From: Escherichia coli
Lineage (GTDB): Bacteria; Pseudomonadota; Gammaproteobacteria; Enterobacterales; Enterobacteriaceae
Assembly (NCBI RefSeq): GCF_041886205.1
Contig: NZ_CP169029.1
DNA: 64,000 bases
Direction: 5' to 3' (one strand)
Shown: positions 1 through 3,000 of the stretch, piece after piece
Layout of the letters: each line of letters starts with the position of its first letter
Position numbering within the stretch: position 1 is the stretch's first letter
Program-made: the position numbers

Positions 1-3000
1 AGTACCAGCGCCGTCTTACCACTCCCCGCAGAGCCGACAATCACCAGCGGTAGCGGGTGTTCGTACAGCGCCTGCTGCTCATCATCAAAGGACAACATTT
101 TATCCAGACGATGGAAACGCCCGTGAGACGGATTAATGTACGTCAGCGTTTCCGTCGCTATATCAACAGGCTCTGGTACAGGTTGTTGTTGTAAGCGGTC
201 TTCATCAATCACCACGTTTTTGCGAAGAAAACGTGAAGTGTGATAGGCATGATTGCGAATATATTCCAGTACAAGGCAGACTGTTTCCCCCTAGTAGCGA
301 TACAGCGAAAACAGTAACCGGGACCGGATACTGAGCCGGGCGCGATAAAGATTGGTGTCAATTTTACGAACATCAGCCTGAACGAAGTTATCGGCCTCAA
401 TGGCCTGTGCAAATTTTTTATAGCCCGGGATCGCTTCCGGGTTCAGGGTATGGTAGAGACAGATTTTCATGGCTGTCAGTTCCTGTCGTGCAAAAAACGT
501 ACTGATTCTACGAAGGAACGGCCCACGCAACAACCTTGTCCCCTTCCTGAATTGAATTCACGGTCAAAAAACGCACGCTGTTCAGTTATCGACACCGATA
601 ACACAACCCCTGATTGTTGTGGATATAACCGGTAATATCAAAGATATCGCGGCTGTTTTTAAGGCAACGTATTGCTCTGGTGTATCACCCCGGGTAACCT
701 GAAAACACCTTTCCACCCGGCATTATCCGCCCGGACTTATCACCCGCCAGGTCTGCTGCAGTAAATCCCCCCGTTGTGAACATGCTTCATCAACTGTGAC
801 ACTGGCTCGCGGGTGACAAATACTCGTCTGGCTGAGCAGCAACAGGCATCGAATTGTTGCTCCTCCATGCTGTTCCCGCAACCAGCGTAACACCACCGGC
901 GATGATGGACTGGTCGTGTGATTACGCTCAGTAATACGTTCATGCACCTGTCGATAAAAGGAAGTACAGAATGCATGAATCTGTTGCCCATTGATGTTTC
1001 CTTCTGCCGAATGGAGCGTGAAATGAAATGCCAGCAGACGCGGCCAGTGGTCCACCGCCTGCTGAACAAAACGCCGGATTTCCCCCGGCTCTGAAAGTAA
1101 GGCTTCGGTTATTTGCACTATTTTATCCTTGTGAATTTTGTTAAGCCGGTGCAGACACACGGAAAGCGAACATCAACACCGGCACGGTACAATACAAACA
1201 CCAGCGACTGGCGGGACGAAGGGAATGACGAATCAGTCAGGAAATGATGACAACCAGTTGGCTGACCAGAGGAGTTAGCAGAAAGATGAGCGGGAGTGTC
1301 GCCAGCATCGGGGACAGGGCTGATTTCCGCAATACCAGCGCCGGCATTGCAACACGTTTCATGCTGCTGCTCCTCGTGATTCCTCAATTCGTTGTTGCAT
1401 CCACTGCTCCACTTCACTTTTGTACCAGCGGCTGCTGCGCCCCAGTTTGATGGGTTTAGGAAAATGCCCTTCACTGATCAGCCTGTAAAACCATTTATCG
1501 GTCATGCCGGTGAAACTGGTGATGTAGTTCATGTCGATCAGGGGATCGTCGGCACGCAGCAATACGCTGTCGTGGCTTGTTGTGGTCAACATGGTCAGAA
1601 TGTCCTCAGTGAGATTTATTAAGAATGGGGTAATACGGGGAATGGGATGGCGTGCTGCTTTCAGCACTGCCAACCGGGATTGCCGACAAGGCAACGGGCT
1701 TCCGGATCGCACACTCCACGGCGATCGCGGGCGAAATCACTGAACGCCCAGATAAGGTCCTTAAACAGGGCTTCGCAGTCCGGTGACCGGCGATCCAGTA
1801 CCACATCCCGTGTTATCTGTTTCTGGTACGGTGCCGCTTCACCCGGTGACGCGAAGCCCAGTACGTTGCTCCAGGCATCCAGAATCAACCTGTCCAGTTC
1901 AGGGCCGTCGAAATACTCCTGTCTGACGCACAGCACCACGTGGTATTCCGGCTTTTCCGGATGACGGGTCAGGAGCCAGCAGAGATCACGTCCGGGGGTT
2001 GCATTCATCAGCGCACTGACGGTTTCGATAAAATCCATGCCTAACCAGGTATTTCTGTCACTGAAGATGTTGTCATGTTCCCCCGGCAGGCGAAGCAGGA
2101 TCCGCCGTACCCGGGAGCAGGACTGTTCACGCAGCGCACGGTTGAGAACACCGATGATTTTGTTCTGATAAGACGGCCAGAAGGGCGCCATGCTATAGTC
2201 GAAATAAGGAATACCATTCATAAGATATGTTCCGTTATGCGCAGCCCACAACGCGTCCTGCCCGTGGATACGCTGACGTGTTATGGCTTGCGGAATGAGA
2301 TTGATAGAATAAGTGAAGAACCGAAGCAGAACGGGAAGATCAGGTAACCGACAAGGGACAGAACACCGGATGCAGGTTCAGGGTGAATGATCTCCGTTGA
2401 CTTCAGTTCACATCATTAAGCAAGGCGGTAAGGTTTTACCGACGGAGTGTTTCCAGGAGAGGAAGCAGATAAAAATACCGTTGCATGACTTCAGGACGAC
2501 TTTTTCAGAAAACGAGCTAAGGGCGTCAACCACGCCCTTACCGTGGCATACGCTCATGCACCGGATGCCGTTTTACAGGATTTACCTGCCATCCAGTAGA
2601 CGCCCTGGCCCACGACTGCAACCATAATTACGTTGCCCGGAACCGTCATGCAGCTTCGTTTCATATTTCACTAGATAACTGGCTCTGTTCCGGGCTTTCT
2701 GCAGCGCTTCCACATCACCACGCTTGATCCAGAGAACAGCGGCTTCACCCGGCTTTTTGTCTGAAGCCTTCCTGGTTTCAGAACATCCACCCGACAAAGG
2801 CGTATCATCGGAAGAAGGGCGAGCATCAGATGATGCCGGTTTACGGAAAGGCGTCCGCCTGGAAAAATGAACCAGTCCATTACCCTGCCAAGGTTCAAGA
2901 TGCAGAGCGCTACACCATGCCAGCTTGATCAGTGTCGCCAGCGAAGAAGGAACAGTGAAATCCCCTGGCGAGCACCAGGTATCTTTGTTGAGCAGTAATA

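Follow-up and report, generated by a model that had tools for sequence, protein, structure and literature searches.

Helicases of the UvrD/Rep/PcrA type, the helicase subunits of Gabija and AbpAB, and toxins of the RelE/ParE superfamily are the closest described counterparts of a gene that is interrupted by an amber codon and starts near the left edge of a stretch of 64,000 nucleotides from Escherichia coli (contig NZ_CP169029.1 of the RefSeq assembly GCF_041886205.1). Below, the whole of this stretch is called the window, and the gene together with its homologs is called the window family. The UvrD, Rep and PcrA helicases of superfamily 1A (SF1A), as well as HelD, helicase IV and the cores of RecB and AddA, share with the window family the Walker A motif and the motifs DEVQD, GDxxQ, NYR, QExKGLEY and YVAxTRA. 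GajB of Gabija is likewise a UvrD-like superfamily 1 (SF1) helicase from mobile or defence contexts. The gene of AbpB (YfjK), residing in the CP4-57 prophage, resembles the window gene in its location beside alpA-like and yfjJ-like genes of a related integrative island; in K-12, abpAB adjoins alpA-yfjI-yfjJ. The type II toxins of the RelE/ParE superfamily (RelE, YoeB, HigB, YafQ, ParE) are free proteins of about 90 residues. The catalytic residues of RelE are K52, K54, R61, R81 and Y87, and those of YoeB are E46, R65, H83 and Y84. Finally, Cami1 (PDB 8phb) is a CARF–RelE fusion from type III CRISPR systems, in which the sensor is a CARF domain binding cyclic oligoadenylate.

The window family differs from each of these. 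Unlike the repair helicases, it has an extremely diverged core surrounded by a predicted RelE-fold module, ankyrin repeats and a winged helix. Compared with GajB, the protein is about 400 residues longer, carries these three unrelated extra domains and has no GajA partner. It shows no detectable sequence similarity to AbpB, which is annotated as a member of another helicase superfamily, and no AbpA lies beside the window-family gene. Unlike the type II toxins, the predicted RelE-fold module is the N-terminus of a protein of about 950 residues; no conserved antitoxin gene lies beside it, and it has no profile similarity to these toxins. In contrast to Cami1, the window family has the helicase, ankyrin and winged-helix parts instead of CARF, no CRISPR association and no sequence similarity to that protein.

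We conclude that positions 1–470 of the window (minus strand) are the start of an inactivated helicase gene; the probability that the pseudogene call and the domain architecture hold jointly is about 0.85. The amber codon itself is not new, being already on record as an internal stop of a RefSeq pseudogene. What appears to be new is that the N-terminal segment cut by the amber belongs, by its predicted fold, to a RelE/ParE-type module heading a large unnamed helicase family.

The interrupted gene and its sister alleles

The minus-strand open reading frame (ORF) opens with ATG at position 470. Its codons 1–59 are all sense and yield MKICLYHTLNPEAIPGYKKFAQAIEADNFVQADVRKIDTNLYRARLSIRSRLLFSLYRY, and codon 60 is TAG. 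Past the TAG, the same frame stays open for 96 further complete codons up to position 1, where the translation ends with ...DDEQQALYEHPLPLVIVGSAGSGKTALV, and the Walker A motif GSAGSGKT is encoded in this frame. The chance of about 97 stop-free codons after a stop is (61/64)^97, or about 0.01, in random sequence. The first-pass annotation had described the start, the 59-residue segment, the amber and the open frame with motif I just as they are found here. The remaining ~2.38 kb of the gene fall past the window edge. The NCBIfam scan of the 156-residue window fragment produced no match, the Rfam scan of positions 1–3000 yielded nothing above the gathering score, and promoter and terminator scans gave weak consensus matches only. 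The features are collected in Table 1.

Table 1. Features of the interrupted gene and its upstream neighbour (window coordinates unless a locus is named).
Feature	Position	Strand	Basis and remarks
5' part (codons 1–156 of 949) of the pseudogene with predicted RelE fold, SF1A helicase, ankyrin and winged-helix parts	1..470	-	translation; identical to L001:12731-13200
Amber TAG, codon 60, from CAG (Gln) via C-to-T transition	291..293	-	translation; comparison with intact orthologs
Coding region of the N-terminal RelE/ParE-fold domain (residues 1–85)	216..470	-	predicted fold
Helicase motif I (Walker A, GSAGSGKT, residues 146–153)	12..35	-	translation; G146 and A148–T153 invariant in 73 homologs
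Q-motif-like DDEQQ (residues 129–133), just upstream of Walker A	72..86	-	translation; D129 and Q132 invariant
Upstream neighbour gene, 178 codons	582..1118	-	ochre TAA at 725..723 (CAA to TAA, codon 132); 'internal stop' from PGAP in L001
Full helicase gene in GXU-23-25-310	L001:12731-15580		949 codons

Four sister genomes allow the gene to be followed beyond the edge, where its length is 2,842–2,850 bp. Window positions 1–1200 are 100% identical to E. coli GXU-23-25-310 (locus L001), the gene part (1–470) included, and 99.8–99.9% identical to strains 1105, EC28 and 2022E04-002. All four carry the same TAG (loci L001, L002, L014 and L015), and all four are complete genomes. One comes from buffalo milk in China, one from a dog in Scotland, and two from human urine, in China and in Taiwan. 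Since the window differs from each of them (its identity to L001 is 99.7% over positions 1–4190, beyond which the two diverge), it is counted as a fifth independent observation of the TAG.

In GXU-23-25-310 the TAG is the sole defect: there is no frameshift, 889 open codons follow, and the natural stop is at codon 950. In 1105, EC28 and 2022E04-002 the TAG is accompanied by a 4-bp deletion at nucleotides 688–691 of the gene, and 2022E04-002 alone has a second 4-bp deletion, at nucleotides 659–662. RefSeq treats all these copies as pseudogenes, that of GXU-23-25-310 (by PGAP) as 'DEAD/DEAH box helicase, internal stop', and the other three as 'ankyrin repeat domain-containing protein; frameshifted; internal stop'. 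Thus the lesion is reproducible and is followed by later degenerative changes. As read from these alleles, the nested lesions are those of a gene that died once, through the amber, and has decayed since; the lineage has carried the amber long enough for extra frameshifts to arise in the sister strains.

Intact conserved orthologs, relative to which the stop is premature and in frame, were found in other strains. The ortholog from EC03 (WP_001545777.1, 949 amino acids, 92% nucleotide identity over the gene) has CAG (Gln) at codon 60, so that the TAG is one C-to-T transition away. The ortholog from CM2 (WP_089620045.1, also 949 amino acids, 97.8% nucleotide identity, 63 nucleotide differences from the GXU-23-25-310 pseudogene) has CAC (His). 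All 73 aligned full-length homologs have a sense codon at position 60, and the residue that it encodes varies (Q, H, R, N, D, A, G). The TAG is, by this comparison, a genuine CAG-to-TAG nonsense mutation of the kind seen in ordinary gene decay. With this single change, translation would end after 59 residues, partway through the N-terminal beta sheet, and no helicase would be made.

Little speaks against the loss of the gene, apart from the frame past the TAG, which is open throughout in GXU-23-25-310 and, as far as the window reaches, in the window copy too. The same observation dates the event, as a frame still open after the stop implies that the inactivation is recent, at least by the sequences compared. 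The first-pass annotation had suggested a recently inactivated UvrD/Rep-type helicase of the island, and the intact orthologs with CAG or CAC at codon 60, together with the 'internal stop' assigned by PGAP to the sister copies, bear this out.

A sequencing or assembly error in a gene that is intact in the source strain had been offered in the same annotation as an alternative, and a single C versus T difference from the CAG of the ortholog is indeed the kind of change an error could make. However, the error would have to recur in each of four complete genomes, which were sequenced and assembled independently, by different laboratories and from different hosts and countries, and again in the window, a fifth and non-identical sequence, and the further frameshifts in three of the genomes are those expected of an already dead gene; we therefore consider an error very improbable. 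It is also unlikely, if not to the same degree, that the stop is tolerated or used, either through low-level amber readthrough or through restart at GTG86, GTG87 or ATG125, which would yield a helicase without the toxin fold, that is, a 'detoxified' one. The 889 codons open after the TAG in GXU-23-25-310 would fit such a scenario, as would the position of ATG125 just ahead of the helicase core, and selection could favour the loss of the N-terminal module, should it be toxic. However, no recognisable Shine-Dalgarno sequence precedes GTG86, GTG87 or ATG125, codon 60 is an ordinary variable sense position with no sign of a programmed recoding site, and wild E. coli lack efficient amber suppression. 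Moreover, the sister frameshifts (nucleotides 659–691) lie downstream of the restart codons in three strains, hence the downstream frame is not maintained by selection. Recent inactivation by a nonsense mutation is thus the reading that we retain.

Predicted domains of the intact protein

The intact protein consists of a domain with the predicted RelE/ParE fold (residues 1–85), a linker, the SF1A core (~125–560), a helical linker, ankyrin repeats (~700–770) and a C-terminal region (~770–949) with a winged helix. The structure prediction covered the N- and C-terminal domains separately.

The core contains the SF1A motifs, Q, I, Ia and II–VI, in the proper order. In the translation of L001 past the stop these are Q, DDEQQ (129–133); I, GSAGSGKT (146–153); II, FVDEVQD (319–325); III, LCGDASQIV (346–354); IV, NYRNG (385–389); V, VQEVKGLEYE (476–485); and VI, YVAFTRA (540–546). 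The core residues of the motifs are mostly invariant or nearly so in the alignment of 73 full-length homologs. The first-pass annotation had noted that a downstream frame lacking motifs II–VI would speak against a helicase; as seen from this list, none of them is missing.

The similarity to described families is rather low. Pfam yields weak matches to UvrD-helicase, AAA_19, UvrD_C and UvrD_C_2 at residues 304–553, and no match in residues 1–125 or 760–949. The NCBIfam matches (RecB, AddA, PcrA, HelD, helicase IV, Rep, UvrD) are partial and far under the curated cut-offs. PHROG 1967, 'DNA helicase', matches residues 275–449 with E 3e-22. In the PDB search with the core alone, the nearest solved sequences are UvrD1, UvrD, PcrA, HelD and FBH1, with E between 0.007 and 0.09; the search with the full-family profile was swamped by ankyrin matches. 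The motif set marks the core as a strongly diverged SF1A helicase of the UvrD/Rep type, predicted to unwind or translocate on nucleic acid in an ATP-dependent manner.

The ankyrin repeats are identified by Pfam (Ank_5, Ank, Ank_3 and Ank_2 at residues 701–752) and by many PDB ankyrin matches (700–755). The predicted C-terminal domain is formed by a beta-hairpin and a winged helix with terminal helices; the three-helix bundle and the beta-hairpin wing that define this fold are both present in the predicted structure.

The N-terminal domain recalls the RelE/ParE toxins already by eye, in the region running from NLYRAR to IRNHAY. Residues 1–80 are modelled with confidence by AlphaFold2 from an alignment of 26 sequences, the predicted local distance difference test (pLDDT) being 87–93 by block. 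The topology of the model is beta (2–6), alpha (17–25), beta (34–38), beta (41–45), beta (51–59), beta (62–71), that is, an N-terminal strand and helix followed by an antiparallel sheet, as in the RelE/ParE fold. Residues 1–85 are thus predicted to adopt the RelE/ParE toxin fold, the basis being the modelled structure, and Cami1 is among the structural matches to the model. This predicted membership of the 59-residue segment escaped the first-pass annotation. The amber sits in the hairpin between the last two strands (51–59 and 62–71), so the last strand, together with E69, H74 and Y76, which are conserved, would be absent from the 59-residue product.

In the homolog alignments R45, R51, E69, H74 and Y76 are invariant and R43 is nearly so. 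All six are located on the last three strands and the C-terminal turn. These positions would correspond to those of the catalytic residues of RelE and YoeB. Given the modelled fold, ribosome-dependent mRNA cleavage is a possible activity, as suggested by the conserved Arg, His and Tyr residues.

On the sequence level, the domain does not belong to the profiles of the RelE/ParE families (Pfam ParE_toxin, YoeB_toxin, HigB-like and similar), and a PDB profile search with it produced nothing relevant. When 1.84 billion representative proteins were searched with a profile of the module, it turned up in 618 representatives. In the 150 best matches of these, it occurs only at the N-terminus of proteins of ~900–1,400 amino acids or in short fragments, and none is a standalone toxin; the two short hits inspected are pieces of broken full-length genes.

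Distribution and genomic context

Of 5,426 complete E. coli genomes, 115 (~2%) carry the gene, mostly in intact form. The carriers are mostly chromosomes of the ST131/EC958 type, with the gene intact there, plus some large plasmids. The gene was also found on 103 Shigella and 13 Escherichia plasmid records, the Shigella plasmid copy being intact with 89% amino-acid identity. In S. sonnei pSS_046, a plasmid of the pINV type, IS600 and IS4 border the copy (L016:8938-11850), and ospG, ipaH9.8 and the antitoxin gene yacA are found nearby.

The family as a whole numbers more than 4,349 proteins at E <= 1e-5 and extends across the Gammaproteobacteria. Full-length relatives of ~950 amino acids with about 50% identity come from Salmonella, Enterobacter, Endozoicomonas, Halomonas, Nitrococcus and many metagenomes. 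None of the names given to the family in the sources is functional; these are only 'hypothetical', 'AAA family ATPase', 'UvrD-helicase domain-containing', 'ankyrin repeat domain-containing' and the automatic 'DNA 3'-5' helicase II'. Longer homologs were seen as well, P0100 and P0103 with 1,133–1,138 amino acids and P0147, P0197, P0205 and P0244 with 1,272–1,580. Two longer members add a PF03695 (UPF0149) domain, and several of the representatives with 1,200–1,580 amino acids retain the N-terminal module. Such variant architectures could help to infer the function.

In the sister loci, the gene resides among variable genes of a CP4-57-like integrative island. Upstream of it are a helix-turn-helix gene similar to alpA, yfjJ-like genes (inovirus Gp2 family) and the 178-residue gene; downstream are an ORF of 42 amino acids, an ECs1377-family protein, an ORF of 77 amino acids and the cdiB/cdiA locus. 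The ECs1377-family protein corresponds to PHROG 24243. The cdiB/cdiA locus (L001:17282-25200, L002:17278-25200) starts ~1.7 kb past the helicase stop, and its effector is annotated as a tRNA nuclease.

The upstream 178-codon gene carries a second C-to-T nonsense mutation in the window, which is common only to GXU-23-25-310; in 1105, EC28 and 2022E04-002 this gene is intact (WP_001683560.1). With both the ochre and the amber present, two adjacent genes have been killed by Gln-to-stop transitions in the window lineage. The 173–178-residue protein has no Pfam or PADLOC match. Its gene was not found beside the distant homologs examined and so was rejected as a conserved partner of the helicase; in the one pair compared, it also showed no similarity to the gene that precedes the homolog in Nitrococcus.

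No conserved neighbour is seen across five distant homologs (Nitrococcus, Halomonas, Salmonella, Enterobacter and Endozoicomonas). Hence the gene is standalone rather than half of a two-gene module. No cognate antitoxin gene was found adjacent to it in the contexts examined. Toxin-antitoxin genes or mobile elements abound around several of the distant homologs. In Endozoicomonas acroporae, a protein with a weak CARD-domain match (L011:5644-6558) is encoded on the opposite strand, upstream of the helicase homolog at a distance of ~1.4 kb; the two genes, located between rimP-nusA-infB and secG-tpiA, may form a short variable islet among housekeeping genes.

Two further observations concern the window to the right of the gene. 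As far as about position 4190, the window matches the sister strains (L001 and L002) at 99.5–99.7% identity, whereas beyond this point the identity is 88–96% and the blocks are rearranged; thus, to the right of the helicase region, the backbone of the island is mosaic between strains. An ORF of 376 amino acids at 4729–5859 (minus strand), rich in Lys, Asn and Phe and situated in what appears to be an AT-rich stretch, roughly matches a 'hypothetical protein' of 407 amino acids in the sister strains (L001:7149-8372), with different ends.

Possible function of the intact protein

Tentatively, the intact family may be a single-protein conflict system, that is, a fusion of a toxin with its sensor that does without an antitoxin. 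The analogy is drawn with Cami1 and with single-protein helicase-effector defence proteins. In such a system, the helicase, ankyrin and winged-helix parts would sense nucleic acid or translocate on it, or would bind a protein trigger. These sensor and motor parts would gate the RelE-type module fused in cis, possibly a ribosome-dependent mRNA endonuclease, which would be held in check with no separate antitoxin and released when foreign nucleic acid or protein is sensed. The outcome could be abortive-infection defence or addiction to a plasmid or an island. The patchy mobile distribution, in islands and IS-flanked plasmid loci, and the neighbourhoods rich in toxin-antitoxin genes are consistent with a function in conflict.

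A number of points weigh against it, and we would sooner expect this reading to fail than to hold. None of 5,027 PADLOC models matches the protein over its full length, and none of 50,697 phage records carries a homolog. In the literature searched, neither this architecture nor the pINV copy is described, and no experiments on the family are reported. The Endozoicomonas homolog lies between the nusA-infB and secG-tpiA housekeeping regions. When Pfam was applied to the N-terminal alignment, the first sequence had no match even at E 10, and 0 of 26 members reached E 0.001; hhalign against E. coli RelE and YoeB gave a probability below 1%. The fold alone does not fix the activity either, as ParE-type members of the fold are not RNases.

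The first-pass annotation had considered that the gene might be the helicase half of Gabija (GajA/GajB) or of AbpA/AbpB (YfjL/YfjK), with the partner just past the window. The partial PADLOC matches to GajB point in this direction, the best of them having E 2.7e-12 at residues 312–455 of 949 and profile positions 174–312 of 540, and so does the location beside alpA-like and yfjJ-like genes of a CP4-57-like island, as that of abpAB in K-12. However, the GajB profile is nowhere matched over its full length: the matches cover ~80–145 residues around motifs II–IV or motif V and look like generic SF1 similarity. In L001 and L002, the 12 kb to each side of the gene contain neither an OLD/TOPRIM GajA-like nor an AbpA-like gene, and GajA is not found beside the distant homologs, which share no conserved neighbour. 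BLASTP against K-12 YfjK/AbpB gives E 0.28 at best, and YfjK is annotated as a DEAD/DEAH-type helicase of superfamily 2, whereas the window-family protein matches only UvrD/SF1 families. Both identities were therefore rejected, and membership in a two-gene system of this kind is hardly tenable. A stronger competitor, although itself doubtful, is an accessory helicase of DNA or RNA metabolism, acting in repair, replication restart or HelD-like recycling of transcription, with the extra domains as non-catalytic docking modules. UvrD, PcrA and HelD are the nearest solved relatives, some homologs are chromosomal and situated among housekeeping genes, there is neither an antitoxin partner nor a full-length match to a known defence model, and the RelE/ParE fold includes non-RNase members. 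On the other hand, such a role fits poorly with the patchy occurrence in E. coli, the IS-flanked mobile locations and several toxin-antitoxin-rich neighbourhoods, and loss through nonsense and frameshift mutations is evidently tolerated; the strictly conserved basic, His and Tyr residues at the presumed active-site positions of RelE and YoeB are more than docking usually needs. The conflict system and the metabolic helicase do not exhaust the probability, the rest of which is left to functions not considered.

By itself, the window copy matters little, as it is a correctly annotated pseudogene and exemplifies the routine decay of island cargo genes. If the conflict system is the true reading, the amber allele would be a knock-out of natural origin, ridding the strain of a costly toxin module. 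Natural alleles are available for comparison: amber-only, as in GXU-23-25-310 and the part visible in the window; amber with frameshift; and the intact allele of CM2. Possibly of more use is the conserved family of ~950-residue proteins, with intact copies in pandemic E. coli ST131 and on Shigella plasmids of the pINV type. If its N-terminal module is active, it would join Cami1 as the second case in which a sensor, and not an antitoxin, controls a RelE-type effector in cis, and the gene would be a new candidate for defence or addiction on clinically important replicons.

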